From: Microcaecilia unicolor
Lineage: Eukaryota
Assembly: GCF_901765095.1 (NCBI RefSeq)
Contig: NC_044034.1
Span: 62,434,339-62,498,338, forward strand
DNA: 64,000 bases
Reading direction: 5' to 3'
A model generated the notes under the pieces. The model ran no database searches. It saw only the letters and a program-made list of their open reading frames with translations, and was not told where the DNA came from. Below, piece after piece: positions 7,950 through 61,422 of the stretch; positions within the stretch are counted from its first letter, which is position 1, and each line of letters begins with the position of its first letter. The translations under genes and the position numbers were made by a program.

Positions 7950-8730
7950 AATTGAATTGGGGGTAATATAGAGTGGATTTTGTCTGTCCAATGGCTAAAG
8001 TTTCTGTTGCTAAATTAAATAAAGGGGGGCAGGGGGACATCCCTTTCATGTACCCCTGGATACAGAGAAAGCAGACGAGCATATTATTGACAGACGATTT
8101 TGGTTTGGGGTTTCAAATACAGGATTTTAATCATATTAATAGGAGTGTCAAAACCAAACCAGAATAGAACCTTAAATAAGTAAGACCACTCTACTGTATC
8201 AAGTACCTTCTATGCATCCAGGGATAATGCAGTCAAGGGCTGTGAATAATTATGCGCTAAGGAAAATATATTACAAAAAAGTCTTGAGTTATCTGTAGTG
8301 GATTTACTTGGTAAAAATCCATTCTAATCTGGATGGATTAATGACTGGAGAATGTAGGACAACCTTAAAGCCAGCAGTTTGGCATATATTTTACTGTCAA
8401 GATTTTATAAGTGAGATAGGTCTGTTATTCGCTACATAAGCAGGATCTTTTCCTGGTTTAGGGAGAATAGCAATTTTGGCCTCTACAAAAGAGCCAAAGA
8501 CTTTTTGATCAGTAATAATATTATAACAGGAATGCAAAAGGGGACAAAGGTCTGAAGAAAAGACTTTGTAAAATTCGTCCAAGAGACAGTCGGGTCCTAA
8601 TGCTTTATTTAATGGACATATTGTAATGGCTGACTTGATTTCTTCTAGCGTAATGGGGAAGTTAAGAGACTCCCTCTTTCTCTGCGGTGGTATTGCCGGA
8701 CCTGTTGTCATTCTGGGCCCCGCCAGCATT
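7950..8730 (-). mobile_element. L1-like LINE fragment covering the N-terminal RT region of ORF2, with frameshifts
   Basis: Minus-strand ORF 8397..8729 carries 'NKALGPDCLLDEFYKVF…ILPKPGKDPAYVANNRPISLIKS'. After a frameshift it continues with 'AKLLALRLSYILQSLIHPDQ', below 8397. These are the standard L1 RT motifs 0 through 2. Confidence 0.55.
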
Positions 8731-9065: not shown

Positions 9066-9465
9066 TCTGTTAAAGTTGAATGGGAAAGTTGTGAGAAAAA
9101 AAGCATCTAAGTATTTATCAGAGGTAGAAGACTGAGGAATATAGTGACTGATAGAAGTTTTGGAAAAGATTGGCAATATAATTTTTATTGACGATACCTT
9201 TTGAAGAGTCATTCAGTGAAGTTACTCTACTTTTGGTGCATTTACCTAAGGTAAGAGGCCAGGAGACGACCTGTCTGCTTTAACTTTCTATTCCATCCAA
9301 GGAGTACAATTCAGTTTGGGATGTGTTCTACCAAATTCGATGGGCTCAATCAGTTTCAACATGAGTTACTTAGCTGGCTTACCAGATTCAGCATGGTATC
9401 ACTATTTTTCAGTTACAGAGAAATACAATCAAAGAGGTTCGGTAGTTGGTGATGATTCAGAGCTG

Positions 9466-10326
9466 GCTTAGTTACCCTACTAGAAGAAGAAGAAACAAAA
9501 CAGCAAAGATGACCAACAAAAGCAAAAAACAAAAAATATAAAAAAAAAAAAATATATATATATATATATAAAAAACATCAAAATTTAAAATTAATCATAA
9601 AATATGTATTTAAAAGATGAATCCATCAAAATCAAAAAATTACATAAAAAAGACGACACTTTGGATGTAAAAATGAAGAATCAACTTTATTAGCCAAACT
9701 GTAGCAGGGAGAAAGGGACTCGACACAGCTGTGTTTCGGCCGTACTGGCCTGCGTTAGGAGTCTTCTCTGCCGTCTGTTGATTATTAATTCTATCCAAAT
9801 ATAAAAAGAATATGTGTGTCAATAAACTGAAGCTATAGTGCTCAATTGTACTGGAAACAAAGCTGCTCTGATCTCTGCTCAACAACTTTGTTTCCAGTAC
9901 AATTGAGCACTATAGCTTCAGTTTATTGACACACATATTCGTTTTATATTTGGATAGAATTAATAATCAACAGACGGCAGAGAAGACTCCTGACGCAGGC
10001 CAGTACGGCCGAAACACAGCTGTGTCGAGTCCCTTTCTCCCTGCTACAGTTTGGCTAATAAAGTTGATTCTTCATTTTTACATCCAAAGTGTCGTCTTTT
10101 TTTTATGTAATGTTTTGATTTTGATGGATTCATCTTTTAAATACATATTTTATGATTAATTTTAAATGTTGACGTTTTTTATATATATTTTTTTAATTTT
10201 TATATTTTTTGTTTTTTTTTGTTGTTTTTTTTGCTTTTGTTGGTCATCTTTGCTGTTTTGTTTCTTGTTGATTTCCTTGCGAAGACTGGTTTCTTCTGTT
10301 TTTTTGTACTTAGTTACCCTACTACA
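9466..10326. repeat. Near-perfect ~860-bp foldback palindrome. Each arm is ~400 bp, the loop is ~25 bp centred near 9880, and the whole structure is flanked by the direct repeat cttagttaccctacta.
   Basis: Sequence 9484..9868 is the reverse complement of 9905..10300. The ORFs at 9640..9885 (-) and 9926..10159 (+) encode the same peptide, as a palindrome predicts. The 16-bp direct repeat sits at 9467..9482 and again at 10311..10326. Confidence 0.8.
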
Positions 10327-10619
10327 CAGTTCTTCCATTCAGCTATGGTGCACTTCCACATGTAGTGTAGAGAATTACATGGGGACTGAAATCTATCCTG
10401 GCCCCACCAGAAATGAATGGAACCTAAAAAAATGTCAGTTGGCATTTTCGGGGCCAAATGCACAAAGTTAGCCGTAAAATACGGCTGCCTCAGTAATATT
10501 AAGTGAATTGTAAACAGCTAGCCTTGCACAAAGGGGATCGTATGCAAATGAGCTGCACAGATCCCCCTTTGTGCATGCTCGCTGTCAAATGCATTTGACA
10601 ACTCTGATGCACCGACCCC

Positions 10620-10870
10620 ACACTTTCTAATAATGTTCCCTTACCTCCCCCTGAATCTTTTTTTCTTTCAATTTCCTTGGTGGTCCAGTGGACCCCAACC
10701 CTCCCCCCCCCCCCACAATTTTTTTTTTTAAGTTTGTCTGGTGGTCCAGTGGACCCTGATTTCCAGCACTGCGGCTTAACCCTGAATCTTTTTTTTTAAT
10801 TTTTCCTGGTGATCTAGTGAACCGGACCCCTTCCCCCTGTGTGTGCGCTCACCCCCTTTCCTGATCCCCT
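10620..10870. repeat. Three tandem ~80-bp units that contain ctggtggtccagtggacc
   Basis: Direct reading. The same core motif recurs in the 45.1–46.6 kb array. Confidence 0.6.
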
Positions 10871-17699: not shown

Positions 17700-18420
17700 T
17701 ATTTATTGAGGTACAAGACATTCACATTCATGCAACAAAATGAAAAGACATAGTCCTAAATCACAATTCACAGCAAATGAACAGATTGAAATATAAACAA
17801 CAACAAAAGACAGTACCCTCAGCTGAGTACTATTTTAACATCCTGCCCAATTTTAATTACCCAACAGACAGCCCCCCCCCCCCACTCCTGGAACATCTGC
17901 AGGTCCCTGAAATAGTGCAACATAAAGTTGCCAAAGGGAACGATAAGCCTGATTCATCAGCTTTTGGTTAGACTTAAGCTGTTCCTGCTCCCAACGAGCC
18001 ATCTGAAGCATCTGTGCATTCCAGTGTTGCAAGGGTGGCGGGCTTTCAGCAACCCAGTGTACCAGTATGGTCTTCCTGGCCAACATTAATGCTACACAGA
18101 TAAAACGACCCTGAGAATCAAGTATACCCTGTCCACTTAAAGCAGATTCATCCCCAAAAGTAACACTCGGTAAGACCATTCAATGGTTAAATTAATCACT
18201 CGCCCCAAAGATGCAAGATCCAAAAGTCCCGTATTTTCATACATTCAAGGAAGTGATTCACAAGAGTGCCCACCGCACAATGGCATATCACACAGGTATC
18301 ATCAACCAAAAGACCCATCTGCTTCCCCCTAGAGCTAGTGATAAAAGCTCTGTACAATAGCTTGAACTGCATCTCATGCAGACTAGCACTGGGAATGGCC
18401 TTGAAGGCCAACACAAAGCA
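17700..18420 (-). mobile_element. 3' end of an L1-like LINE (the Cys-rich C-terminal domain of ORF2)
   Basis: Minus-strand ORFs 18196..18414 and 17853..18179 read 'LYRAFITSSRGKQMGLLVDDTCVICHCAVGTLVNHFLECMKIRDFW'. This is the usual C-terminal C..C…H…C cluster of L1 ORF2. Confidence 0.55.
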
Positions 18421-18465
18421 GGCAGCCAGTTCTGACTCAGATAAGTCCTCTCCCAGCTGCCCAGT

Positions 18466-19310
18466 CTACCATGAGGCCAAATGAGAGGGTCGATGTTCCC
18501 TGCCTACGGCGTACCACGCCGCCAATTTATTTGCTGTCAAGTCCCTTACCTCTGGGCCGGCGAGGCCTCCGGCAGCATGAGGACGCCCCGCTGTCTTGAC
18601 GCCGTAGTGCTTTCCACCGGTGCGGCCGGGTCCTCCGGCGGTGCGGGGTCGTCCGCTCCCTTGACGTCCGACGCACCGTTGGCGGTGGTTCGGCGTTCCG
18701 TCTCGTAGCGCCGAAGGTACTCCGGGGCCGTTCGGGTCCGTGGGCCCACCTCCCTGCTCCGCAGGGATTGGTCTTCCTGCGGGCAGACTCCTGCACTCTT
18801 CCCCCCTCGGCATTCCAGCCTATGGCAGCGCTCCTTTCCAGCTGATCTCTTTCAGCTGCAATGATCTGCTCAACTTCAGGGCGCTGCCTCCCTGCCTCAT
18901 CGTTTCGGCTTCTACTAAGGTAGGCGATTCACTCTCTCTGTTCGTTGCTGTATTACTTGCTCCTGCCTCTGACCCTTGCTCGGACCCAGACTACTCTCTG
19001 CCTGCTGCCAGTCTCTGACCCTTGCTCAGACTTGGATTACCTTCGGCCTGCCTCTGACTTCTGCCTTTGCCTGGGAACATCGCTCACTTACTTTTGGCCG
19101 ATTCCTCTGCATCCTTTTTTCCCAACCTACTGAAGTCCTGCCGGCCGCCCGCCCGCACCTGGGGGCTCAACCCCCAGGGACCGGCGGTCACCGCAGGTGA
19201 AGTTTCGGGGTTGCTCGGCTGCCTAGCAGAGCCCCGGTTTGAGTCTCTCTCATCTGTGCTCCGCTTGGCACAGGGACTCACAAGGGCGACATTTGCTGAC
19301 AGAAAAGTTT
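18466..19310 (+). repeat. Unclassified ~850-bp interspersed repeat, copy 1. It has a CpG-rich 5' half, internal ~45-bp tandem subrepeats and a conserved 3' block (cacctgggggctcaacccccagggaccggcggtcaccgcaggtga).
   Basis: It aligns along its whole length with 40370..41260 in the same orientation. The overlapping ORFs on both strands (18466..18813 and others) are compositional artefacts of the CpG-rich sequence. Confidence 0.6.
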
Positions 19311-19979
19311 ATCCAATGTGGCAAAAGAATGTCCCCGGACACCAGAAGGGACTAGGGATACACAGTAAAGCCGTAGCTGAAAGAAAGCTAAGAAGTCAGA
19401 ATGAGAAAGCTGCCATTGTGCCTGTGCAAACGAAGGGAAGACAGCCCCCTCTGGATCTGTAAAATGTCCAACATAGTGACAGCCCCCCTTCGCCTATGCC
19501 CTAAAACAGGTTGCACCCTGCTCCTCCAGGAAGTGAGGGTTGTCAACCGTTGCTAGAAAAGGGGAGGAACCAGATGCTTCCCTGGAACGGAGTCTCCACC
19601 ACATCCACACCCAACGAAGTGGGTGGAGCAGAGGGTGCAGCCCCCCCACCCCATCATGGGCAACTGTAAAAGGTTAAAAGCTGATTCCATATCATCAAGC
19701 TGATCAATCCATAGACTGGTGGGTTGTGTCCATCTACCAGCAGGTGGAGATAGAGAGCAAACTTTTGCCTCCCTATATGTGGTCATGTGCTGCCGGAAAC
19801 TCCTCAGTATGTTCTCTATCTCAGCAGGTGGTGGTCACACACAGCAGCAGCTCTGGCTAGGCCTCCAAGCCTAATCCTTAGGTTTTGTTGAGGCCTGGGG
19901 TTGAGGGCTCTTTTGAGCAAGTGCAAACCTGGTGGTGCCAGGTCCCTCCTTTTCTCCCCCCTCCCGCTGGCTCCGTTTA

Positions 19980-20012
<33 letters not shown>

Positions 20013-20533
20013 TAAACGTCTTTAAAGGCGTTTAATTCGACGTTTCTTTAAACGTTCATTGCAGCTACTCACTGGGACACCAGTTCGTTACAGCTCGGAG
20101 CGGCAAGCAGGTAATTTTACCTTTTTATAGCGGGCAGGGGGTTTCCCGATTCTTCTCCTCGTGGCAATGGCGTCGGAGGGCGAGGGCGCAAAGGGTCGCT
20201 CCCCGGATCGCTGGAGCGCTTCTAGAGGGGATGCGGGGGTTTTACAACCTGATTCGCCCTTGATGGGTGATAGATAAGTGACCGATGAATGTCCCGGTCG
20301 TTCCTCCGGCGTGGCGGTTTTTTCCCGCCATAAACGCCCATCCCCCGCTCCTCGCCTCCGCCATCTTGGCCGGCCACGCGGCTCGGACGGCTTCTTCGGG
20401 GCCGCCCTTGAGGTTGGAGACATTAATGCCATGAACGCCCTTAATTTGGGCGACGGCACAAAAGCGGCTAAAGTTAAGCGCCGTTCTTCCCGCGCGGCTC
20501 CTTCACGGAGTTTCGCGCCGGACGCCATTTTGG

Positions 20534-21883
20534 ATGCGCAGCATGTCTCTCCCCCGCTATTGCGAGCGCCGGTTGAGAGTGCGTCTAGGGCTGTTGCCCA
20601 GGCTGCGGAAGTGCACAGTCTGGGGGGTTTCTCCCCCGAGTTTGTTTTGCTGCTGCATCAGGCTTTCCTCATGCAAAACGCTGCCCCTGCTCCCTCTTCT
20701 GATAAAGAGGTTGAGGTTCCCAGAGGTAAACGCCCTCGGGTTGATTTCCAGGCCTTGGAGGACTTTTGTCTCCTCTGATGTAGATGAGGGCAGCGTGTCT
20801 GAGGTCTCCCAACGATCCTTTGCGGATTCCTTGGAGGAGATAGATCCCCGCTCGGATGGAGCGGATGACCCCTCTGCAGCGCGGCTTTTTAGCCCAGAGG
20901 ATTTGCCCAACCTGTTGTTACAGGCCATGGACACTTTGAAGATTTCCTCTCCGGAGGACGTCTCTCCCTCAGCCCCTGTTGGCTCTGCCATTATGCTGGG
21001 GACGAAGCGCCCGCCTAGAACCTTCCACGTGCATGATGCCATGCACACCTTAATTGCGGCTCAATGGGATGTCCCGGAAACGAGCCTTAAAGTGGCTAGG
21101 GCTATGTCCCGCCTCTATCCTTTGGCTGTGAGTGAACGTGAGGCCTATCTGTGGCCTACCGTGGATTCTTTAATCACTGCGGTGACTAAGAAAACGGCGT
21201 TGCCGGTGGAAGGTGGCACGGCCCTAAAGGACGCCCAAGACAGAAGATTGGAGGCGGCCTTAAGGTCGTCCTTTGAGGCAGCTGCTTTAAGTTTGCAGGC
21301 CTCAGTTTGCGGCTCCTATGTGGCCAGGGCGTGCCGGACTATGGTGCAGCGGGCTTCCCCCTCGGATCATTCCTTGAGGGCTGATTGGCCGGCCCTGGAA
21401 TCGGGCTTAGCCTATTTGGCAGACTTGCTGTATGATGTCTGGAGAGCCTCAGCTAAAGGCATGGCTCAGACAGTCTCTGCGCGGCGGTGGCTTTGGCTGA
21501 AACATTGGTCTGCTGACCACGCCTCTAAATCCCGCCTGGCTAGATTGCCTTTTAAAGGCAAGCTGCTCTTTGGGGTCGAGCTGGACAAAATCGTGACTGA
21601 TCTCGGCACGTCTAAGGGCAAGAAATTACCAGAGGTCAGGGCTCGGGTTAGTACTCGTCCCGATACCTCCATACCGCCCGGGCAAGTCGGGTTCCTCTGC
21701 CCCCTCTTCCTTCAAGAGGAATTTCTCCCCCAAGCAGCATTCCTTTCGCAGAGACCGCCGTCCCGGAGGTGCTCCCTCCGGTCCTCCCCCAGGGTCTCGT
21801 ACCCAATGACGGGGCCTTGGTCCACGCCCCAGTGCAGATTGGAGGACGGCTGTCCTCGTTTCTGGGCGAGTGGACCACTATAA
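20534..21883 (+). CDS. DIRS ORF1 (putative Gag-like protein)
   Basis: 449-aa ORF lying between the left ITR and the RT, in the position of DIRS ORF1. It has no catalytic motifs. Confidence 0.5.
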   Translation: MRSMSLPRYCERRLRVRLGLLPRLRKCTVWGVSPPSLFCCCIRLSSCKTLPLLPLLIKRLRFPEVNALGLISRPWRTFVSSDVDEGSVSEVSQRSFADSLEEIDPRSDGADDPSAARLFSPEDLPNLLLQAMDTLKISSPEDVSPSAPVGSAIMLGTKRPPRTFHVHDAMHTLIAAQWDVPETSLKVARAMSRLYPLAVSEREAYLWPTVDSLITAVTKKTALPVEGGTALKDAQDRRLEAALRSSFEAAALSLQASVCGSYVARACRTMVQRASPSDHSLRADWPALESGLAYLADLLYDVWRASAKGMAQTVSARRWLWLKHWSADHASKSRLARLPFKGKLLFGVELDKIVTDLGTSKGKKLPEVRARVSTRPDTSIPPGQVGFLCPLFLQEEFLPQAAFLSQRPPSRRCSLRSSPRVSYPMTGPWSTPQCRLEDGCPRFWASGPL

Positions 21884-23706
21884 CTTCAGACGCGTGGGTG
21901 CTGGAAGTCATCAGAGACGGCTACAAGCTAGAGTTCTGCCAACCCTTAAGAGACGGGTTTGTACTCTCTCCCTGCAAGTCTCCGGTCAAGCTGTGGTAGT
22001 GCAGCAGACCTTGGACAACCTGATCCGCCTGGGTGCGGTCGTTCCGGTGCCAAAAAATCAGATTGGCAAGGGGCGTTACTCCATTTACTTTGTGGTTCCA
22101 AAGAAAGGAGGTTCTGTCCGGCCTATCCTCGACCTCAAAGGGGTCAATCGGGCCTGGAAAGTGAGGCACTTTCGCATGGAGACTCTCCGCTCTGTTATAG
22201 CGGCAGTGAAGGCAGGAGAGTTCTTGGCTTCCTTGGACATCAAGGAAGCGTACCTGCATATTCCCATCTGGCCTCCTCTCCAACGCTTTCTGCGTTTTAC
22301 AGTCCTGAGACGACACTTCCAGTTCAGAGCCCTCCCTTTCGGGTTGGCTACTGCTCCGCGGACCTTTTCCAAAGTAATGGGGGTCATAGCGGCCTTCCTG
22401 CTAAAGGAAGGAGTACAAGTCCATCCTTATCTGGACGACTGGTTGATCCGAGCCCCCTCTTATGCAGAGTGCGGCAAAGCTATGGACCGGGTAGTTGCTC
22501 TTTTGAGCTCCCTGGGATGGATCATCAACTGGAAGAAGAGCCAGCTGCGCCCGACTCAGTCCCTGGTGTATCTGGGAGTTCGATTCGACACCCAAGTGGG
22601 CAGAGTGTTCCTGCCAGACAATCGGATTGTCAAGCTTCAGGCTCAGGTGGACTAGTTCCTAGTAGCCTCTCCTATTCGGGCTTGGGACTACGTGCAGCTG
22701 TTGGGCTCTATGACGGCCACGATGGAAGTAGTGCCCTGGGCCAGGGCTCATATGAGACCACTACAGCTATCTCTGCTGCTGCGCTGGACTCCGATGTCGG
22801 AGGATTATGCTGTGCGCCTTCCCGTGGACCCAGCAGTGCGCAAGGTGCTGAGCTGGTGGACGCAGACAGACAAGTTGTCTGCAGGATTGCCTCTGGTGAC
22901 CCCGGAGTGGATTGTCGTCACGACAGACGCCTCTTTGATGGGCTGGGGAGCCCACTGCTTGGGAAGGACAGCGCAGGGGCTCTAGTCTCCTGCAGAGGCA
23001 AGTGGTCTATCAACCTCCTGGAACTCAGAGCCATTCGCTTGGTGTTATTGGAGTTCATCCCGGTACTCGTGTTGAAGCCTGTACGGGTCCTGTCGGACAA
23101 TGCCACGGCTGTGGCCTATATCAACCGCCAGGGAGGTACCAGAGCGCCCCTCTAGCCAAGGAGGCTATGAGTCTTTGCCAGTGGGCGGAAGCGAACCTGG
23201 AGCAGCTTTCAGCGGCCCACATTGCCGGAGTCATGAATGTCAAGGCGGACTTTCTCAGTCGCCATACCTTGGAGCCCGGAGAGTGGCAACTATCTGCTCA
23301 GGCGTTCTTGGACATCACGAAGCGCTGGGGCCAGCCGAGCCTAGATCTGATGGCGTCATCGGCCAATGGCCAAGTGCCGCGCTTTTTCAGCAGAGGACGG
23401 GACCCTCGATCCCTGGGAGTAGATGCTCTTCTCCAACAGTGGCCGACACAAGAGCTCCTCTATGTGTTCCCGCCCTGGCCCATGTTGGGCAGGGTGCTAG
23501 ACCGGGTGGCAAAGCATCCCGGCAGGGTAATCCTGGTGGGTCCGGATTGGCCCAGACGTCCCTGGTATGCGGACTTGTTCAGGCTCTCAGTCGACGATCC
23601 TCTGCGGCTGTCAGTGGAGCAGGGCCTGTTACATCAGGGTCCCGTGGTGATGGAGGATCCCTCTCCCTTTGGTCTTACGGCCTGGCTATTGAGCGGCAGC
23701 ATCTGA
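21769..23706 (+). CDS. DIRS pol: reverse transcriptase (YLDDWLI), RNase H, and the DIRS/Ngaro-specific domain (…LLYVFPPWPMLGRVLDRV…ILVGPDWPRRPWY). It is interrupted by at least two frameshifts or stops, near 22655 and 22985.
   Basis: ORF 21870..22655 carries RT motifs (PILDLKGVNR…, FLASLDIKEAYLHIP, YLDDWLI). ORFs 22692..22985 and 23002..23706 hold the RNase H segment and the conserved DIRS domain in other frames. Confidence 0.75.
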
Positions 23707-24746
23707 GGAAGAAGGGCTTCTCAGACAAGGTCATCGCCACTATGCTGAGAGCGAGGAAGCGCTCTACTTCTACTGCTTACGCCAGGGTTTGGCGTATCTT
23801 TGCAGCATGGTGTGAAGCAGGCTCACTTTCTCCCTTCACTGCTCCAATTTCTTCAGTGTTGGCGTTCCTGCAAGAAGGTCTGGAGAAAGGCCTGTCGCTC
23901 AGTTCCCTTAAAGTCCAGGTAGCGGCTCTGGCTTGCTTCAGGGGCCGCCTGAAGGGTGCTTCCCTGGCTTCGCAGCCAGATGTGGTGCGCTTTCTCAAGG
24001 GAGTTAATCACCTGCGCCCTCCTCTGCACTCAGTGGTGCCTGCGTGGAATCTCAACCTGGTGCTAAGAGCATTGCAGAAGCCGCCTTTGGAACCCTTGTC
24101 GAGGGCATCTCTGAAAGACCTGACGTTGAAAGCAGTCTTTTTGGTGGCTATCACTTCAGACAGAAGAGTTTCCGAGCTCCAGGCACTCTCATGTCGAGAG
24201 CCTTTTCTGCAGTGCACTGAGGCAGGAGTGACTATTCGCACAGTGCCTTCCTTCCTGCCCAAGATTGGTTCTCGCTTCCATGTGAATCAGCAGCTCTGTC
24301 TCCCTTCCTTTCGTAGGGAGGACTACCCAGAGGAGTACTCCGCTCTTGAATATCTGGATGTGAGACGAGTCATCATCAGATACTTGGAAGTGACCAATGA
24401 TTTCCGGAAATCGGATCATCTGTTTGTCCTGTTTGCAGGTCCTCGTAAGGGTCTGCAGGCTGCTAAGCCTACAGTGGCAAGATGGGTCCAGGAAGCCATT
24501 GCAGCGGCTTATGTGGCCGCAGGGAAGGTGCCGCCTATCCAGCTGAAGGCTCACTCCACGAGAGCTCAGGCGGCCTCGATGGCAGAGGCCGGATCCGTCT
24601 CCTTGGAAGAGATATGCAAGGCGGCAACGTGGGCTTCGGCTCATACATTCTCCAAGCATTACCGTTTGACTGTGGCTGCACGGGCGGAGGCCCGGTTTGG
24701 AGCTTCAGTGTTGAGGTCAGGGATTTCTATGTCCCGCCCTGGGTGA
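23100..24746 (+). CDS. DIRS tyrosine recombinase, an intact 548-aa ORF
   Basis: C-terminal catalytic signature '…LKAHSTRAQAASMA…ICKAATWASAHTFSKHYRL'. This supplies the R…H-x-x-R…Y residues of lambda-integrase-like recombinases as seen in DIRS. Confidence 0.8.
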   Translation: MPRLWPISTAREVPERPSSQGGYESLPVGGSEPGAAFSGPHCRSHECQGGLSQSPYLGARRVATICSGVLGHHEALGPAEPRSDGVIGQWPSAALFQQRTGPSIPGSRCSSPTVADTRAPLCVPALAHVGQGARPGGKASRQGNPGGSGLAQTSLVCGLVQALSRRSSAAVSGAGPVTSGSRGDGGSLSLWSYGLAIERQHLRKKGFSDKVIATMLRARKRSTSTAYARVWRIFAAWCEAGSLSPFTAPISSVLAFLQEGLEKGLSLSSLKVQVAALACFRGRLKGASLASQPDVVRFLKGVNHLRPPLHSVVPAWNLNLVLRALQKPPLEPLSRASLKDLTLKAVFLVAITSDRRVSELQALSCREPFLQCTEAGVTIRTVPSFLPKIGSRFHVNQQLCLPSFRREDYPEEYSALEYLDVRRVIIRYLEVTNDFRKSDHLFVLFAGPRKGLQAAKPTVARWVQEAIAAAYVAAGKVPPIQLKAHSTRAQAASMAEAGSVSLEEICKAATWASAHTFSKHYRLTVAARAEARFGASVLRSGISMSRPG

Positions 24747-26591
24747 GTACTGCTTCGGTACATCCCACCAGTCTATGGATTGATCAGCTTGATGATATGG
24801 AAGGTAAAATTATGTATAATCATACCTGATAATTTTCTTTCCATTAATCATAGCTGATCAATCCATAGCCCCTCCCAGATATCTGTACTGTTTATATTCT
24901 GGTTGAATTTTAGGTTCAAGTTTAGCCTTCAGTTACTTCAGGAGGACTTCGTGTTCAAGTTCTTCTTTCACTTGGATTCTTCAAGAGTTGAGACGACTTT
25001 GTGTTACAGTGAGCTGCTGCATTCCTCTCCCCTCCGTTTTACGGGGCTGGATTGAGACATAAATTCTGCCGGCACTCCCTCCCGCTTCGTGCGGCTGTAG
25101 GGCAGCTTTGTACCCCTCCCGCTTCGGCGGTGTTAGGGTCAGTCAGCTCCTCCCGCGGTTGCGGTTGCAGGATAAGCCAGATCCCCCCGCATCGGCGGGT
25201 GTGGTGTCCCTCTCCCGCTCCGCGGGGATGAGCTGGACGGATTCCCCTCCCCCACTTGTGTGGGGATGAGCTGGGTTAATTCCCCTCCCCCGTTTCGGCG
25301 GTGGTGAGCTGGGCAGAGTGTCCCTTCGTGGGTGTAATTCTCTAAGTGCTGAGTCCTGCGGATGGAGCTTTGATATCGACATACTGAGGAGTTTCCGGCA
25401 GCACATGACCACATATAGGGAGGCAAAAGTTTGCTCTCTATCTCCACCTGCTGGTAGATGGACACAACCCACCAGTCTATGGATTGATCAGCTATGATTA
25501 ATGGAAAGAAAATTATCAGGTATGATTATACATAATTTTACCATAAGGATAAGAGCAGTCCGCTCATACATAACGTGGTGCATAGTTGTAAACACCAGTA
25601 TAAAGCTCATGTATCCACCTGATCAGCGCTGTAACATTGTAAAGACGTAAATCTGGTAGATGAGGCCCTCCCCCCGTGACTGGGAGTGAATGAATTTAGT
25701 GTAGCTAATCTGTGCCCTACATCTGGCCCAGAGAAATGATCCTACAGTCCCTTTATATAATGCTTCCTCCTTTATAGCAATCAAGGAGGGGCAACATCTG
25801 TAAAGGGTACAGTATTTTGGGGGGCATGACCATTTTTTCCAGCACCACTCTGCCCAATAATTGCTTATATGTGCTTTTATAGAATAGGCTCACAGACCGT
25901 GTTCTTTATGCGCCCATCTTGTAGCTAGGACTGGCACGCCCTTAGCCAACTTTTTGCACTGGCACCGATGCCCCCTTCACTCCACTACAGCCTGTAATCC
26001 AGTATCTCCCTTTGTCGCTCAAGCCCTGCCCCCCTTCCCCCCACTGGACCAGGTGAGGCACTGGCTCAAGATGCTGGTGATAAAGGGCACCAGAATCCCA
26101 ATTAGACATCTACCCCTCTAGGAGTTTGAAGGTAGGCCTTTATCTTCAGTGCCCTGAGCCAGTGCCTCACCTGGTCCATAGGTTGAGCTGGCCCTGCTTG
26201 TAGCACCCAATTATAGAATTGTCCCCTTTAATGTATGACATCTGATACAGGTGGGAAGTCTAAACATAGCTAATGTTGAGTCCTTCCAAAGCAAGACATT
26301 TTTTTTCTGTGTGGAATAAAGTTGTTGTTGTTTTTTTTTTTTTTTAATCTGCCAACTTTGCTCCTTTTTTGATCGTCGGCTATTTGACTATGAAGGCTTT
26401 TCCTCTTCTTTTTTTTGTGATTAATACTACAATTGAATTCCTTCAAAAAGGCAGTAAATAAATCCTAAATAATAAATTACAGTGTGCTGTGTCTCAGAAA
26501 ATGCTCATGATCTCTGTCCCTAAGTACAGTTATTGCCGGCAGTTAAACATTTAGAGAAGTATAATGATTGCAGTTATTTTATATTTTCCAG

Positions 26592-41260: not shown

Positions 41261-41489
41261 TGACAGGTGTTTCATTGATCTTGTGCTGGCATTGTATCAT
41301 ATCTGTTATGTGAATTGTATTCCTTGCTGTCTGAAAAACGAAAGAGAGGAAAAGACTGTGCAGAGTAAACACAGGAAACCAAAGAACGGAGGTGGTCAAA
41401 TGAAACAGAGACGTGAATCACAGTTGCAAATAGGAAGTCAGCCATTAATAAAGACTTCCTATTTGCACCTGTGATTTAACGCCTCCATT

Positions 41490-42210
41490 TTTTTTGGCCA
41501 CCTCTGCTCTTTGGTTTCCTGCTGTCTGCCATAGCTTTGTTTGTATTGCACTGACTTTACCAGAACACAGTGCTTTTACCACACTTAGAACATGTGAATG
41601 GTTTCACTTTATTTTGGATTTTCTTGTGTATTTTGTACGTTTTGCATTTGGCTGTATTTGTTTGAAAATGGATCAAGAAATAAAACATCCAAATCACAAA
41701 ACATTTTTCCAAACAGCATTTTCAAAAGGAAAAGAAACTTTTTTTTGTAGAAAATGACCTTTCCTGTTCTGATTTTGGACGTTTTAGAAAAGACGTCCAA
41801 ATTCAGACTTAGATGTCGTATCCAAAAATGCTGCTGGCGCATTTGACTTGCCCAGAGTCACAAGGAGCAGCAGTGGGAATTGAACCCATGCTACCAGGAT
41901 CAAAGCCCGCTGCACTAACTGTTAAGCCACTCCTCCTCTGTTTTAGATGTCTTGCATTTGGATGTCTTTTGTTCGAAAATGAACCAAAAAAAAGGACGTC
42001 CAAAACATCCAAATCACAGGACGTCCATAGTATTTTTGAACACAAAAGAAAGAAGTCCATCCTTTTCTAAAATAACCTTCTTTCCTGTTCGGAATTTGGA
42101 CGTCTTTGTAAAACGACTACATTCTGATCTAGACATTTCTTTCGAAAATGCCCCTCCACTTGACCTGCCCAGTGTTGCAAGGAATGTCAATGAGAGGAGG
42201 ATTTGAACCG
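41490..42210. repeat. Tandem duplication of a ~340-bp composite unit. Each copy ends in a minus-strand SINE head fragment (41811..41925; partial at 42130..42200).
   Basis: 41600..41840 and 41940..42130 share colinear words (ttgcatttgg…ttgaaaatg…acatccaaatcaca…ttcctgttc.gatttggacgt…). ORFs 41609..41842 (-) and 41952..42206 (+) are artefacts. Confidence 0.5.
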
Positions 42211-46620: not shown

Positions 46621-49600
46621 ACTTCTACCCCATGATCAGAGATAATTGCGCTGTTTAAATTTGCATGCATTATCTATGATCATAGGTCTAATAGGGCTCC
46701 ACACTGTTCCAGCGCTATTTTAGAGCGCTGTTGGAACAGCGCAGGGCTTTTGATCATCTGCCTGTTTGGGAGGGTGGAGGTGTGACAGGGGCCAGGGCAT
46801 GTTTCCTCTTTTTCCTTAGGGCAAATACGATAACCCTAGTAGGGAATCCTTTATTTCTGAAAGAAAGAGTGGCTCACTGAGTGGAGCAGAGCTGGTGAGC
46901 ATCCATTAAAACTTGGTAGCATATCACTGAGGGTGTGAGGTCTATGTAGAAATGTATTAAACTGGAAAACGTTTTTTCAGATTCTAACAGATTTAAAAGA
47001 AATGGCAGTTGTTGAGCTGCAGCAACTACCGGAAAATTATGCATTTCTATTTCGCATTTCAGCAAACTTTGGTTTATCAAATGGATCTCAGGTAATTTTT
47101 ATTGCCTTAAAAATCTTTTCACCAGTCTCTTAAAAATATTCTGTACAGATCTAAGTGATAAATAATTGGTATGATATGGACCGGCTACACTAAGCACGAC
47201 ACGAGTAAAAAACTTTAGTTAGTACATCGGGCTCTAAATGAGCATCTGACATTCTTTTTCTCTTTCCATTTCCCAAGGCAAAAGAGAACAGGAGAATATA
47301 CTTCAGTTGTATTAACTGCACAACAGTGCATAGTAAATACTCTTCATATTTTGTGGTGGTCCATTTTTTCATGAATTTAAGGCACATGCCCCCAATTTGG
47401 GCTCGGGTCCACCCAAAATTAGACATCTCCCTTGCTGTGGCTGGTGGATATCCTCAAGCTCCGCCAACTGAAGATCTCCTCTTCCTGTTTAGTGACCAGA
47501 ACTCTTCAAGCTCTGCAGCCAGTGTCAGTGTTCCTGGGGAGGTCTTCAGCTGTCAAGGCTTGGGGATCCCCACCAGCTCAGGTATTTTATATTTTGTATT
47601 TGGACGGGGGGGGGGGGGGGGAGGGCAGAGGGGTGGGGAGATAATTGTGTGCCCACGTTTGGCTCAGGCTCACCCAAAATCAGCTATCTGGCGACGCCAC
47701 TGATGTGTTCGATGCATTTTTAGAAGGTTTCCCAATATAGTTAAAGTAATTGGTAACACTGTGACAGTGTATTTCACTGAGGCAGCAAGTCAGCACAAAA
47801 GCATGAAAATATTTTCTGAATATAAATTTGTAGCACTGTCACCATCTATAGTAGATTGGTTTTAATGACACAGTAGAGAAAACATAACTCTTAGTAACAG
47901 ACTTCAAAATATTTTAAATGGAAAACACATAATATTCTCTCTTTCTCTGTGAGTTTATGCTGATTTGTCTAATCATGAGCTGACCTTGAGGCTTATTTTC
48001 AAAGCACTTAGCCTCCCAAAGTTCCATAGAAACCTATGGAACTTAGCCTCCCAAAGTGCTTTGAAAATATGCCTCCTTATATAGTAATGGAATCTGTAGA
48101 AAGCAAGTTCAGTGATATAAGTGTTTCTTTTATCACCAAACTGTGAAAGAGAAGAGAGTGTGAGGCATCATTAGTCCAGCCTGTTCATTAAAACATGGTG
48201 GTTTTGTGATTAACAGAAAGAAACACAGTTTCTACAGGTGAAAACTTCGAAAGAGGCTTGCGAAAGTTATGATGTCTATCTTGAAGATCTCAAGAAGAAA
48301 GATTTCACATTAAAAGAAGATGTCCCCCAAGAAGCAATCCGGTTTGCTTCTGAGATGCTGCAGGAGGTTTCTACTGGTTTTGATTTCATATGCTTTCAGT
48401 TTTACTTCTTTAGAGCAGTACTATGCTTTCTCTAGCTTTACAAGTTATTACAGTATATGAGAGATTTTTAGCAGTCAGTGGAAGCAGGAAAAGACAACGG
48501 GGGCTTAAGTGACTTGGTAGTAATGCGGAGCAGGAGAGAGAGTGTTGGATTGCCCAGATTTTATGAGCAGTGTTCTGAAAGGAGAGACATGAGTAGCACT
48601 TATGATCTTTTTTTGAACGTAAAGTTATTCAGCTCCTATTAGGCCTGATGCCAAAACACAGTAACTGTTGAGAATGTAAATATGAGAAAAAGTAAAACAA
48701 AAAACAATTTCTTTGAATAAATCCCTTGACCAAAACTAATACAGTACTGTGTTCTGGCTTAACATATCTCCCATATATCAAGAGATACTATGTTTTGGAC
48801 TTTTGTTACAGGCTTGAAAATGCATTCAAAATATTAAATGACTACCATGTTAAAAAATACAGGAACTTTATGCGGGAGGTGTGGGTCCCAGACAGGTTCT
48901 TTCCTACACATTTGGTGGACCTGTCCTAGGGTGGTCCCTTTTTGGCAGGCTACTATAGAAGCATTAGTAACTATGACGGACACATCCTTGGTGTGCAGTC
49001 CCTTGGTGTGCCTATTGGGTTTGCACAATGAAAGCGACTTTTGGGAGAAGAGCAAACTGATGTGATGGGGGTTGGCGGCAGCTAAGTGCCTCATAGCGCA
49101 ACGCTGGAAAACGATAGACCCCCCCCCCCGACACTGGGTGAATGGAAGTGTAAATTGGGACAGCTTCTACATATGGAACGCCTCACGGCGTATTGTAGAG
49201 ATGGAGACCTACGACGCAATGGGGGGTGGATTCGACTTCAACAATGTCTAGCAAGTGTATAAGATGGGTGGGATCTGGGAGTACGATTGGGGCTCGGAAA
49301 GAATGGGAGGGGAGGAAGGGATAGGGGGAAAGGGAGTTTGTCCCCAAGAACCAGGGGACAATCTCAAGTTATGTTGGGGATGACTATGGAAGGGGAAAAT
49401 GTTTCATGTTCACATAAAGGTTACCTGCAGAGTGGATAATGTTAGGAGGGGTATGGTTAGTAAGCTCAAAGAAGAAGAGTATGCATGGGCAATATGTATT
49501 TTCATTTGGTGCAAAAATGTTAGCAATTGTTTGCTTTAGTGAAGTTTATAGTGAATAAGCTGTTTACCATACTTTGTGTAAGTTGTTTGCTTAAAATTTA

Positions 49601-53039: not shown

Positions 53040-56000
53040 GAAAAGATTGGACGTTCCCAGTCTACTTGTTTAGAGACCCACGATTTGGGGAATATTTACG
53101 GGCTAAATGGACTGAATATAAGCACTTTAACGAGGGTACGGTTGACAGTTCTACCAGTTTTTGGGAAGCTGCGAAAGCAGTATTAAGAGGGGAGATAATA
53201 AGTTATGTGGCACAATATAAACGTGCGCGGGATAGGGAAATTGTGCGGTTAGAAAAGAGACTAATTAAGTTGAATAGACAATATGGTCTAACCCCATGTA
53301 GCAAGGTTAGACAAGAGGTGATAGAACTACAAACAACTTTGAACTCCCTGATACATGATAGAGAATTGAAATCTCAAGCCTATTATCGCTTTCAGTTATA
53401 AAAGCATGGAAATAAAGGAGGCAAATTTCTAGCTAGACTTATAGCATCTAAATATTCATCTAAAAATGTAACAACTATTAAAAACAAAGAGGGGAATTAT
53501 CTTCATACTAATAAAGAGATTAGATCAGCGTTCCAGACATATTACCAAAGCCTTTATAAGGCGTCGGAACAAGAAGGACTTCCGGGTGAGCTATTTTTAG
53601 ATGGGGTTCAGACCCCTAAACTACAAGATAGGGATAGTACTCAACTAAATGCAAAAATTGGTGTTGATGAGGTGACATGGGTAATAACGCAAAGTAAAAT
53701 GGGTAAGGCCCCGGGCCCGGATGGGTATAAAGCAGAATTTTACAAGTTGATGGGTGACTCGGTGGTCCCAACACTGGTTAAGGTGTTTAATGAATGGATG
53801 GAGAATGGTAGGATGCCAGACCAATTAAATTTGGCTAGGATAGTTGTGTTTCCTAAGCCTAAAAGAGATGAAAAACTGGTAACCTCCTATAGACCTATTT
53901 CATTAATTAACCAGGAAGCAAAATTATTTGCAAAAATTCTAGCAAATAGACTGGGGCGAGTGTTACCTCATCTTATCCACACAGCTCAGGTGGGGTTCGT
54001 ACAAGGTAGATCGGTTTCCAAAAATCTGAGGAGTATTCTGGCAGCATTAGAAGGTTTGGGCCACTCCCAGGCACAAGCATTAATGATAAGCTTCGATGCT
54101 GAGAAAGCATTTGATAGAGTGGAGTGGCCCTTCCTGTACTCTGTGCTGGAAAGATATGGATTTCAGGGTAAATTTGTACAGGCGATCAGGGCATTGTATC
54201 ACCAACCTAGAGCACAGGTGATGGTGAATGGGAATATATCGGAGGAGATCCAGATTAGTCGAGGTACTAGACAAGGGTGTCCACTCTCACCTCTACTTTT
54301 TGCACTGCAGTTGGACCCCCTAATTAGAGACATATATGATTGTGTGGCGATTCCTGGGGTACAACTTAAAAAGCAGGAATTTAAACTTGCCGCGTTTGCG
54401 GATGACCTAATGATGGTTATTACAAAACCGAAGGAGACCCTGCACAATCTACTAGAGTTAATTCAAGAATGTGGAGATTACTCGAGCTTTAAATTAAACA
54501 TAGACAAATCTGAAGCTCTTGGGATAAACTTAGACATTCGAGCCCATTGGCCGGAAGGATTTCCTTTGAAACGAACGAGCAAATCTTTTACATATTTAGG
54601 GATTCAATTACCGGCTAATTTGAAGGAGCTTTATACATTGAATGTTACAAACATGCTGGAACAGACAACTCAACAGTTGGATTCATGGGGCAATTTAACA
54701 CTATCTTTGATGGGGAGGATTAGTCTTATCAAAATGGTGATATTGCCAAGATGGCTATACACATTACAGGTACTGCCCATAGTGTTATTGCAAAAAGATA
54801 TCAAGCGATTATATCGATTGATATCTAGATTCTGCTGGGCAAAAAAACGAGCTAAGATGCAGCTGAAACATATGTTGGGGGGATGGAGGCAAGGAGGCCT
54901 GGGAATACCTAATATAAAGTTTTATAATATGGCATGCCTCCTGCGCCAAACACGAGATTGGCTATATCAAACCCAGGAACACACACCTCTAGAGATGGAG
55001 GAAGCGTTATATAGTCCATATCATGGGATAACATTAGCACATTTACAGAAAAAGGAGATACCGCATAGACTTAGACAAAATGTTCTGATATTATCACTCA
55101 GAGCAGCGTGGAGATTCTTAGGGGAACTATTGGGGGGAGATTCAAGAGTAACTGAGTATCTAAACATCAGGGGGAATCCGTCTTTCGTACCCGGGCTGGA
55201 AAATAAAACATTTGATAGGTGGGCACAGGAAGGTGTTAATTGTATAGCTGATGTACTGGAAGAGGGAGGGGACATACTGCCACTGTCACAGCTATTGGCT
55301 CAGAGGGAGCAGGTTTGGGGTGATGTATACGCGCACTGTCAACTTAAACATTATGTACAAACATTAGATAAAACAGCATTGCAGTGTAAACTGGGCAACA
55401 AAATCAAAAAATTCTTTGATGAGATATCTGAAAATGCCCCATCTATATCCCAGATACATCGGAAGTTATGGGAGCTGGCTCCGATGAAGGAGATAACTAA
55501 GGTTAGACAGAGATGGGAAAAAGATATGAGCTGCAATTTGGAATCATGGGATATTACTGCGCAGATACAAAATATACCAAGAATAATTGGGGGCGCAGAT
55601 TACAGGGAATGCGCGTATAGAATAATTTACAGAGCTTATTTTACCCAAGTACAATTATATAAATCAGGGGGTATAGAGACAGCGCTCTGTTTGAAATGTA
55701 ATAGACATGACAATACTTTATACCATGCGCTATGGGGATGTGTAGTACTACAGAGATATTGGAGACAAATAGTTGCTTACCTGTCTCATGTTTTGGGTAG
55801 TAGAATAGACATGAATCCACGACAGTTGATATTAGATTTGAAAGATGAACCTTTAAGACTCAATGCTGATAAAACATTATTATATCGAAAGTTATGTCTG
55901 GTGGCGAAAAAATGTATTATGCAATATTGGACTGTAGCCAGTTCACCACCTTATTGGCATTGGCGTAACAGGGTGCACCAGTTGTTAGTGTGGGAGGCGA

Positions 56001-56110
56001 AAGAAGTTAAAGGACAGTACAAAAGGAAAATACGGTTTCTTAAAACATGGGGTAGCTACCTGGAAAAAATGACACAGAGAGGCCGAAGTTTGGTCATTAA
56101 TACTTTATAA
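53040..56110 (+). mobile_element. L1-like LINE (lineage 2), 5'-truncated with no endonuclease. It keeps the post-EN Z region (53066..53401) and an 812-aa RT to C-terminal ORF (53672..56110). A G-rich 3'UTR follows.
   Basis: Motifs FWEAAKAVLRGEIISYVAQYKRAR (Z region), KAPGPDGYKAEFYK, YRPISLINQEAKLFAKILANRL, GTRQGCPLSPLLFALQLDPL, FADDLMMVI, the C-terminal Cys/His region, and a poly-G run at 56165..56185. Confidence 0.8.
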
Positions 56111-57640: not shown

Positions 57641-58333
57641 ATCAGGAACGCATTGGTTTAGTTAAGCTTGTGGGAAGAAAAATGTGGTCTACCGTTTTTG
57701 ACTGAATCAGTGTTGCTAGGAAGTTGTACCAAGTTGAAAGAGTGTGCGGAGCTGCCGGTGGTGGTAGTCGGGACAGAAACAATCATTTTCTTCCCATAGA
57801 AATTGATGGTGCCAAAAACGGGACCGAAGTGTGGCATGCAGTCAAACAGAGCGTGCACTTAAATGGAATGCAATGTATTTTCAAAGCACTTAAACATAAA
57901 AAGTTGCATAGTATCCTGTTGAACTTCATAAGTCTAAGCGCTTTGAAAATGAGCCCCAAAGAGTCCTATATTTTCAAATTTGTTTGCTAGTATTAACAGT
58001 CTTTTTATAAACTGAGAACAGAGGGCCAGAATTTCAGGAATATCTGAGCTCAAATCATGATTCTGTCCATGAAGAATAATATTGTACCAAGAAAAAAACA
58101 ACAAAGCGGAAGTGACCAAAAACAAAAAATTCACACCAAAGGTGCTGCAGAAAACTTTACTGATGTTCAATAGACTTGATATAAATTGTGTTTTGTCCAC
58201 AACGAGCCTGCATCAGGAGTCTGAAAACCTCACAATGGTCTATATATTAACACACTGTGCCTTAGTCCATTATACTGATAAAGGTTGTCAGTAATCAAAA
58301 ACTGCTGAATAACAACACAATCTTCAGTTTAGC

Positions 58334-60540: not shown

Positions 60541-61422
60541 ATGGAAAGATTTCTGAGTACACCAAAAGCATCGATGGCGAGTAGAGCCGGGAAAAAAGAA
60601 AAAGAAAAACCAAAGGCGTCAAGCAGCGCGGAAGATGGCCAGACGGCGCATGGAGGCGGCTCCTTCACGGAGGAGCAAATACGACAATTGACAGAAGTGG
60701 TGAGCACAACATTGGATCAAAAATTAGATAAACTTTGCTCAAAAATATCAAACCTGGAAGCGCAAGCAGTGGAGACGGTGCAGAGGCTGGGAGAACTTGA
60801 AAATCGGGTGTCGGAAGTGGAAGACACGGCAGGCCCAGTAACACAGAAGCTGCAAAAGATGGCGACGGAGATTGAGCATTTACAAGCGAAAGTAGACGAT
60901 CTTGAAAATCGATCACGACGTGGCAACCTTCGGATCGTAGGGCTTCCCGAGACGGTGACCGACAAGGTATTGCCTATAGTTTTAGAGAAGTGGCTGGCAG
61001 AAGAATTTGCCTTGTCGGATCACGCAGGGAAACTGTGTCTGGAGCGGGCCCACCGAATCGGCAGAAAGCAAGACGGGAAAATGGCCCCGCGAACAGTGAT
61101 AATAAAAATACATAACTATGTACATAAGGACGAAATATTAAGAGGAGCGCGCCTCAAAAGGAATGAACTGAGATATGATGGGAATCAGATACGTATTTAT
61201 CAGGACTATTCAATGGCCCTACAGGAGAAGCGCCGACGTTATACGCCACTCTGCCAGCAGCTGCACGAAGCACAAGTGCCTTTTATGTTGATATACCCAG
61301 CCATTTTAAAAGTGAAGACAGAAGGAAGATGGAAATCATATGATAATTTCAAAGAGGCACAAAAACATGTTCAAGAACTAATACATATGGGTAAGACCGG
61401 CTCGCCAGATGAGGAAGTTTGA
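60541..61422 (+). CDS. L1 ORF1p (RNA-binding chaperone), intact at 293 aa
   Basis: From the ORF track: coiled-coil heptads, 'ENRSRRGNLRIVGLPE', and the C-terminal domain 'RIYQDYSMALQEKRRRYTPLCQQLHEAQVPFMLIYPAILKV'. Confidence 0.85.
   Translation: MERFLSTPKASMASRAGKKEKEKPKASSSAEDGQTAHGGGSFTEEQIRQLTEVVSTTLDQKLDKLCSKISNLEAQAVETVQRLGELENRVSEVEDTAGPVTQKLQKMATEIEHLQAKVDDLENRSRRGNLRIVGLPETVTDKVLPIVLEKWLAEEFALSDHAGKLCLERAHRIGRKQDGKMAPRTVIIKIHNYVHKDEILRGARLKRNELRYDGNQIRIYQDYSMALQEKRRRYTPLCQQLHEAQVPFMLIYPAILKVKTEGRWKSYDNFKEAQKHVQELIHMGKTGSPDEEV

Follow-up and report, generated by a model that had tools for sequence, protein, structure and literature searches.

The window analyzed here, a stretch of 64,000 nucleotides of Microcaecilia unicolor DNA, contains a long inverted repeat of 0.84 kb that is flanked on both sides by the same 16 bp. 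This raises the question of whether the palindrome stems from a mobile element, from an inverted duplication of resident DNA or from an error in the assembly. Most likely it is an ordinary insertion scar, and neither a foldback DNA transposon nor an assembly error. The palindrome probably goes back to a single insertion, in which a small retroelement of the Penelope-like element (PLE) type, non-coding and non-autonomous, left two truncated copies in head-to-head orientation.

Architecture of the palindrome and its target-site duplication

The inverted repeat was delimited by reading the sequence of positions 9300-10500 and by a repeat finder. The following features were assigned.

9467-9482, no strand: left copy of the target-site duplication (TSD), 16 bp, CTTAGTTACCCTACTA; exact direct repeat
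9483-9865, sense on the minus strand: left arm, 383 nt, 5'-truncated copy; from inverted-repeat pairs, gapped arm alignment and family alignment
9866-9882, no strand: spacer of 17 nt, CTCTGATCTCTGCTCAA, the head-to-head junction
9883-10308, sense on the plus strand: right arm, 426 nt, 5'-truncated copy; from inverted-repeat pairs, arm alignment and family alignment
10270-10308, plus strand: one-sided 3' extension of 39 nt (the tail), on the right arm only; from inter-arm pairing and arm alignment
10309-10324, no strand: right copy of the TSD, 16 bp; exact direct repeat

The 5' truncations of both arms meet at the centre of the palindrome. From there outward each arm consists of complex sequence followed by a T-rich stretch which ends at the direct repeat. 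The 3' end of the left arm at 9483 represents the tail-less site, and the 3' end of the right arm at 10308 directly abuts the TSD. The last pairing between the arms was found at 9487/10269, leaving 4 nt unpaired on the left and 39 nt on the right. Moreover, the terminal bases of the two arms differ (GAAGAAG... versus ...TTTTTGTA), a feature that fits a cut-and-paste element poorly.

The inner 220 nt (9646-9865 and 9883-10102) are 99% complementary. In the outer parts of the arms complementarity falls to 87-89%, and indels are found there in A/T homopolymers and microsatellites. Self-BLAST of the palindrome gave 92.6% over 795 aligned columns. When the arms were aligned with gaps, their differences proved to be mostly indels in homopolymers and (AT)n tracts and a handful of substitutions. 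As single-stranded DNA the palindrome folds with -405 kcal/mol compared to -78 ± 3.6 kcal/mol in shuffles (z = -91). The 16-mer CTTAGTTACCCTACTA occurs exactly twice in the 64 kb with both strands counted; the number of repeats of this kind expected in a stretch of 3 kb is about 0.001. It is a genuine TSD left by the insertion of a mobile element.

An earlier note on this DNA had described a perfect foldback palindrome with A/T microsatellites in arms of about 400 bp, a loop of about 25 bp and a flanking direct repeat. The flanked palindrome is obviously real, as judged from its fold and from the two occurrences of the 16-mer, and the microsatellites were confirmed. The term perfect is an overstatement, and the arms are unequal around a spacer of 17 nt. 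The first copy of the direct repeat had been placed correctly, whereas the second lies at 10309-10324 and not at 10311-10326.

The flanks of the palindrome are unique and non-palindromic. Joined via a single TSD copy they read ...GAGCTGG-CTTAGTTACCCTACTA-CACAGTTC.... A paralogous empty site of this kind was not detected within the 64-kb window.

Near-identical arms around a short spacer are also typical of an in-situ inverted duplication of resident DNA, as it arises when replication switches template (through fork stalling or microhomology-mediated break-induced replication) or when a hairpin-capped break is repaired. Such an origin is highly improbable here. Continuity with the flanks does not single out either arm as the original copy, and the whole unit lies inside a clean 16-bp TSD. 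Furthermore, the arm sequence is a dispersed repeat, and a second palindrome of the same family with its own TSD is present elsewhere in the window (see below). The template-switch inverted duplication proposed in the earlier note may be retained in an altered form, namely as a probable template switch or self-priming of a reverse transcriptase at integration, but not as a replication error in resident DNA.

We also considered an artefact of assembly or sequencing, for example a chimeric hairpin read caused by a missing adapter. Foldback chimeras of long reads exist, and many of the differences between the arms fall into homopolymers. Yet the arms have diverged by base substitutions too, such as G/A in the hammerhead core, in addition to indels. 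The palindrome is short and lies within unique sequence between TSD copies, and an independent palindrome of like architecture was found at 41.3 kb. The assembly chimera suggested previously is therefore extremely improbable.

A dispersed family with a second palindrome

Sequence comparison placed the arm in a dispersed family, which is the key result of this analysis. The idea that the arm might be single-copy was not borne out, because relatives were found even inside the 64-kb window.

26237-26410, plus strand: older solo relative with CpG decay, comprising the hammerhead-like block, AATAAAG and a tailed 3' block; from the colinear two-block test
58089-58222, minus strand: older solo relative, comprising the hammerhead-like block and a colinear 3' block ending at the tail-less site; from BLAST and the block test
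48630-48680, plus strand: possible further relic of the hammerhead-like block (weak); nhmmer profile, E=0.069
41334-41521, no strand: second, smaller head-to-head palindrome of the same family; from the repeat finder and a profile match
41334-41371: one-sided extension of 38 nt on the left arm of the second palindrome
41325-41333, no strand: left TSD copy of the second palindrome, TGCTGTCTG; this 9-mer occurs at two window positions only
41520-41528: right TSD copy of the second palindrome, TGCTGTCTG

The copies show faint homology to each other. Comparisons of pairs by nhmmer were weak (E 0.07-0.3, and 0.45 for one arm), and the copies are still mutual best non-self matches. Since local alignment of whole arms resembles T-rich noise, block-wise tests against real-sequence controls were needed, and the case for the family rests on colinear two-block tests.

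In nhmmer, the two main arms were the best non-self matches of the 26-kb copy (E 0.07 and 0.45). This copy contains both blocks in order, and 0/4000 and 4/4000 random real-sequence segments matched as well. This copy passes through a homologue of the 39-nt extension and terminates with ...TTTTTTTTGTG, compared to ...TTTTTTTGTA in the main palindrome.

A sensitive BLAST search with the complex part of the arm revealed one non-self match, which is the hammerhead block of the 58-kb copy (58222-58187, minus strand). With a transition-tolerant score of 22 this block is the best non-self match of the window, compared to best scores of 16.0 ± 1.3 (maximum 20.5) in 25 shuffled windows. The family 17-mer AGACTCCTGATGCAGGC / AGACTCCTGAYGCAGGC was found within the window only in the two main arms and in the 58-kb copy. 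All four CpGs of the arm motif are changed to TpG or CpA at 58 kb, as expected of an older, decayed copy. The 3' block of this copy (TTGGTCA..CTTTG.TGTTTT..TTTCTT) is located about 45 nt downstream on the same strand and was matched as well by 3/4000 random real segments.

According to the alignments, the 58-kb copy ends approximately at the stop of the left arm and the 26-kb copy at the stop of the right arm. Thus, the 3' ends of the copies fall at two shared positions separated by about 39 nt, and the 5' extents differ. TSDs of at least 7 nt were not detected around the two solo copies, which is expected for old, decayed insertions.

The second palindrome exhibits arm pairs at 41372-41417/41476-41521 (80%) and 41416-41439/41453-41476 (96%) around a spacer of 13 nt. 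A 3'-block profile built without this locus matched positions 41489-41529 with E=0.0064. The right arm stops at the tail-less position (GGTTTCC). The extension of the left arm resembles the tail of the 26-kb copy, a modest similarity that was reached by 34/20000 random 40-mers, and we regard the two extensions as homologous. The TSD measures 7-9 bp, as 2 nt can be assigned either to it or to the end of the arm. The arms are only about 70-80 nt long and start just downstream of the hammerhead block. Consequently, the 41-kb palindrome is an independent insertion and no copy of the main one. In both palindromes the 3' ends point outward, poly(A) is absent and an extension of 38-39 nt is present on a single arm, and the TSD lengths within the family differ (16 bp in the main palindrome versus 7-9 bp at 41 kb).

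These data bear on a further explanation, according to which the main palindrome is a foldback or MITE-type DNA transposon with terminal inverted repeats of about 390 bp, whose cut-and-paste transposase would generate long TSDs. Long inverted arms, small size, a non-coding sequence and a flanking direct repeat fit this description. The 41-kb element (about 190 bp, 9-bp TSD) is superficially MITE-like, and the best sub-threshold Rfam matches of the main palindrome are long-hairpin plant miRNA precursors, which reflect shape only. Drosophila FB and Galileo as well as long-TIR MITEs likewise are non-coding, consist almost entirely of inverted repeat and are flanked by a duplication. The termini of such elements, however, are symmetric, their TSD is short and constant (7-9 bp) and they move by cut-and-paste. 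In the family described here the ends are asymmetric, the TSDs vary and solo copies with 5' truncation occur, which are retroelement traits. The asymmetry amounts to 39 or 38 extra nucleotides on one side with mismatched terminal bases, the TSDs of two members of one family measure 16 versus 7-9 bp, and the solo half-copies have the same outer end as the arms. To our knowledge, there is no eukaryotic cut-and-paste superfamily that makes 16-bp TSDs. A DNA transposon is therefore very unlikely. What remains of the foldback element with a long TSD proposed before is a mobile-element insertion with a true TSD.

Hammerhead-like motif and coding content

Both long arms of the main palindrome contain, in sense orientation and reading outward, a motif with the layout of a hammerhead ribozyme.

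9985-10031, plus strand: hammerhead-ribozyme-like motif of the right arm; descriptor match
9717-9763, minus strand: mirror hammerhead-like motif of the left arm, in which G5 is additionally changed to A, CUAACGCA; from arm alignment

This layout comprises helix I, a CUGANGA box, helix II closed by G10.1-C11.1, a GAAA box and a short helix III. In the right arm helix I is formed by GACUC/GAGUC, followed by the core CUGACGC, an unpaired A, helix II (GGCC/GGCC), GAAA and the cleavage triplet GUC. Helix III is palindromic (ACACAGCUGUGU). Including its surroundings (about 9976-10046 in the right arm, with the mirror copy at about 9702-9772), each arm reads outward as GAGAA-GACUC / CUGACGC-A / GGCC-AGUAC-GGCC / GAAA-C / ACAGCUGU / G-UC, followed by GAGUC-CCU-UUCUC.

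A descriptor of the PLE-type hammerhead which allows at most one core mismatch, and which was composed after the motif had been seen, gave a single match on both strands of the 64 kb, namely the motif of the right arm; 0.05 matches are expected per Markov-shuffled window. The motif exhibits the PLE-specific hammerhead traits described in PMC4209133, with a deviating core that Rfam does not call. The deviation consists of a C instead of A at position 9 or, equivalently, of an extra C following G8. Rfam hammerhead models gave no match at E<=10, neither on the element nor on a 121-nt slice. The MFE fold keeps helices I and II and pairs GACGCA with UGUGUC in place of helix III. Because of the core deviation, the silence of Rfam, the post-hoc descriptor and the MFE fold we name the motif hammerhead-like and treat it as supporting, not decisive, evidence. 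It may be, or may once have been, catalytic. The sequence CUGAYGCA recurs in the 58-kb and 26-kb copies, in the latter decayed to CUGAUACA. The core change is therefore ancestral to the family.

No Pfam match was obtained for the mirrored 77- and 81-aa ORFs of the arms, in agreement with the previous statement that the arms hold no coding domain. The protein search of arm ORFs covered the 77-aa ORF, which has no homologue among 5.8 billion proteins; this collection apparently does not include the source species, so that the result is uninformative. Exact 23-24-mers of the arm gave 0 matches in metagenome contigs and in prokaryotic genome contigs.

An ORF for a reverse transcriptase or GIY-YIG endonuclease was not found in or near the main palindrome. 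Thus, the element can be no more than a derivative that lacks autonomy or a copy with severe truncation. The Poseidon_Ac protein gave nothing below E=0.15 against the window (tblastn), and no nucleotide similarity to the pseudo-LTR (pLTR) of Poseidon_Ac from Anolis, the sole PLE compared, was found (blastn). The search with a PLE protein returned mainly insect matches, a few from Anolis and many metagenome sequences, with no amphibian among them.

At gathering thresholds Rfam detected no family in the whole window. A tRNA scan of the window was negative as well, and a tRNA-derived SINE head is therefore absent. At E<=10 the main palindrome matched only generic hairpin and miRNA families, including long-hairpin plant miRNA precursors. 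A microRNA precursor (Rfam MIR8007, MIR1435, MIR9783 etc.) was rejected since the scores are far below threshold, for example 91 bits compared to a gathering score of 195. These sub-threshold matches reflect the shape of a long hairpin only.

The window as a whole is a mosaic of eukaryotic transposable elements. It contains a GC-rich DIRS-like element with a reverse transcriptase ORF and a gag-like ORF that matches the Pfam LAP2alpha domain. Moreover, L1/Tx1-like reverse transcriptases, a Tigger-like DDE_1 transposase and a zf-CCHC gag were identified. The best relative of the most intact reverse transcriptase of the window is a caecilian gene model (41% identity), and the remaining matches stem from fishes and frogs (about 30-35%). 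Two element types were tried for the palindrome and rejected. The first was a DIRS terminal repeat, as the palindrome does not resemble the DIRS copy at 20-25 kb. The second was an L1-type poly(A) retroposon, as the outward-reading strands are T-rich rather than A-rich. Reading of the main palindrome in either orientation revealed no A-rich 3' end, which excludes a poly(A) retroposon.

No ORF for a reverse transcriptase or GIY-YIG endonuclease is linked to the family in the window, which makes a LINE-dependent retroposon the main alternative. In this case a non-autonomous retroposon would have been moved by an ordinary LINE instead of a PLE, with snap-back of the cDNA during target-primed reverse transcription. 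The 16-bp TSD, the 5' truncation and the common 3' ends of the solo copies are general features of target-primed reverse transcription, and the window harbors several LINE reverse transcriptases and no detected PLE ORF. A LINE origin is nevertheless unlikely, since a poly(A) or microsatellite tail as in L1- or CR1-type LINEs is missing. The structure also recalls the twin priming of L1 (5' inversion), where both nicked strands prime reverse transcription and an internal inversion arises inside a normal TSD. L1 twin priming, however, inverts without duplicating and leaves a poly(A) end, whereas here the same segment is present twice and poly(A) is absent.

Probable relation to Penelope-like elements and a possible route of integration

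PLE insertions may carry a 30-40-bp tail at one end only and contain inverted 5'-truncated copies (PMC8557442, PMC3846280). The tail has been ascribed to two internal initiation sites of reverse transcription whose spacing equals the tail, and the Poseidon PLE protein of Anolis cleaves and extends both strands in vitro (PMC11167929). For PLE-rich genomes 'dual min-HHRs 100-700 bp apart on opposite strands' were reported (PMC4209133). PLEs and their non-autonomous hammerhead-bearing derivatives, the retrozymes, were present in 7/7 sampled amphibians and not in mammals or birds (bioRxiv 10.64898/2026.07.22.740005). The TSDs of PLEs vary in length and track the distance between the first- and second-strand nicks. 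The PAc hammerhead of Anolis undergoes protein-assisted cleavage.

The family described here resembles the Penelope-like elements (Poseidon/Neptune/Penelope) in its head-to-head arrangement with 3' ends outward and in its heavy 5' truncation (PMC8557442, PMC3846280, PMC11167929, PMC4209133). Further shared features are the 30-40-bp tail at one end, the variable TSD, the absence of poly(A) and an inverted junction with a short spacer or palindrome. The hammerhead-like motif, whose core deviates at position 9 and is not called by Rfam, may be a counterpart of the hammerhead in the terminal repeat of PLEs. Unlike PLEs, the main palindrome contains neither an RT/GIY-YIG ORF nor a direct pair of pLTRs and consists of only two truncated terminal fragments. 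It also has long A/T-rich low-complexity inserts and shows no similarity to Poseidon_Ac, the sole PLE compared.

Like the animal non-LTR retrozymes, the element is a short non-coding unit of a few hundred nucleotides. It occurs as scattered monomers, and its hammerhead-like motif corresponds to type I and contains a palindromic helix III. The defining trait of retrozymes is a direct tandem repeat, which permits cleavage at two hammerheads and circularisation of the RNA. In contrast, the two motifs of the main palindrome are inverted and lie on opposite strands, and ribozyme activity is doubtful. A tandem array of the unit was not found within the window. Taken by analogy, the element is likely related to the pseudo-LTRs of PLEs and to animal non-LTR retrozymes, from which we infer the class of the enzyme that moved it. 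It would then probably be a non-autonomous and so far unnamed addition to a known kind, the PLE-type head-to-head insertion.

For such an insertion the following order of events may be proposed. A PLE reverse transcriptase/GIY-YIG endonuclease supplied in trans would nick the target strands 16 bp apart, and the nicked target DNA would prime synthesis on the RNA of the element. Two alternative internal start sites with a spacing of about 39 nt would be available for this synthesis, and the use of one or the other would explain why only one arm carries a tail. In the case of the right arm it would have begun at the distal (tail) site, and the polymerase would have halted after about 425 nt, short of full length. 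The second, inverted arm could have been templated on this first cDNA by self-priming or a template switch across the 17-nt loop. Alternatively, the other nicked strand could have primed on RNA in the same manner, with both RNAs equally truncated. Finally, repair would seal the structure and duplicate the 16-bp target.

The two palindromes have very different arm lengths and are each symmetric to within 13-17 nt, which favors templating of the second arm on the first. On the other hand, the tail-less arms end at the position used by a solo copy, which favors two bona fide initiation events. With two examples self-templating and dual initiation are inseparable.

Two of the four clear copies in the 64 kb are palindromic. 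That the family habitually integrates as symmetric snap-back palindromes is nevertheless a speculative proposal, which we consider quite unlikely. If it were true, a genome-wide catalogue would provide sequence-level evidence for PLE-type reverse transcriptases switching template onto nascent cDNA. As a second possibility, CUGAYGCA may be a tolerated, previously undescribed variant of the hammerhead core that is conserved at the family level.

Structures of this type are easily mislabelled as foldback DNA transposons, MITEs, miRNA hairpins or assembly errors. Outward 3' ends, a tail of about 39 nt on one side, TSDs of variable length and a hammerhead-like motif make up the PLE signature, which can serve as a simple classifying rule. 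The two independent palindromes, each symmetric with one tailed and one tail-less arm, represent natural experiments and bear on second-strand synthesis in PLE integration, i.e., on self-priming versus priming by both strands. The main value of the locus lies in this annotation lesson and in the paired examples for the second-strand step.

Nothing suggests a cellular function of the palindrome, and the element is probably an inert scar by now. The main palindrome is a potential cruciform or fragile site: its 220-bp, 99% identical inverted repeat around a 17-nt spacer represents a plausible cruciform or deletion hotspot.

Other copies of the arm family

The family to which the arms of the main palindrome belong, a dispersed retroelement read as Penelope-like, has further copies in the window.

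26237-26410, + strand: old solo relative of the arm, with the ribozyme-like (hammerhead-like) block and the 3' block
58089-58222, - strand: old solo relative of the arm, with the same two blocks
48630-48680, + strand: possible further solo relative
41334-41521: head-to-head palindrome of the same family, ~190 bp
41325-41333 and 41520-41528: 9-bp target duplication of the 41-kb palindrome

Both old solo relatives (26 kb and 58 kb) show CpG decay. The 3' end of one lies at the tail site and that of the other at the tail-less site, the two alternative family ends. The 41-kb palindrome has a spacer of 13 nt and an extension of 38 nt on one side only; taken alone, it would look like a MITE.

In three members of the family, an AATAAA hexamer embedded in A(A/G)TAAAG is kept a short way 3' of the hammerhead-like block (10057-10062, 26311-26316 and 41447-41452). 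The 58-kb copy carries AGTAAAG at this position. The conserved hexamer could be a polyadenylation signal or merely a conserved family motif.

Rfam matches at the palindrome centre

With relaxed thresholds, the centre of the main palindrome (9773-9973) matched plant miRNA-precursor families in Rfam, namely MIR8007 (91 bits versus a gathering score of 195), MIR1435 and MIR9783. These matches reflect structure only, as for any long perfect hairpin, and are likely to lead to erroneous miRNA annotation.

Surroundings of the main palindrome

The entire window looks like nested transposable elements without a host gene.

21-1127, + strand: gag-like ORF with a zinc knuckle
8397-8729, - strand: fragment from the N-terminal region of a LINE reverse transcriptase
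10638-10823: tandem repeat, three copies, period 61-68 bp, 75-80% identical
~18000-26000: GC-rich DIRS-like retroelement, ORFs at 20534-24746 (+)
53672-56110, + strand: apparently intact L1/Tx1-like RT ORF, 812 aa
59009-59911, + strand: DDE_1 transposase, Tigger/pogo-like
60541-61422, + strand: coiled-coil ORF resembling LINE ORF1

The LINE fragment, ~740 bp upstream of the palindrome, gave no Pfam match at default thresholds, and no coding continuity was seen between it and the palindrome flanks. The tandem repeat, whose unit ends in ...TGGTGGTCCAGTGGACC, lies 300 bp downstream; similarity to the palindrome arms was not seen.

The DIRS-like element contrasts sharply in composition with its surroundings (54–57% versus 36–45% GC). 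Besides an RVT_1 ORF, it carries a gag-like ORF with a match to Pfam LAP2alpha (E 8e-17). A 548-aa ORF without Pfam match is taken to be the putative tyrosine-recombinase region. The best relative of the 812-aa RT, 41% identical, comes from the caecilian Microcaecilia unicolor.
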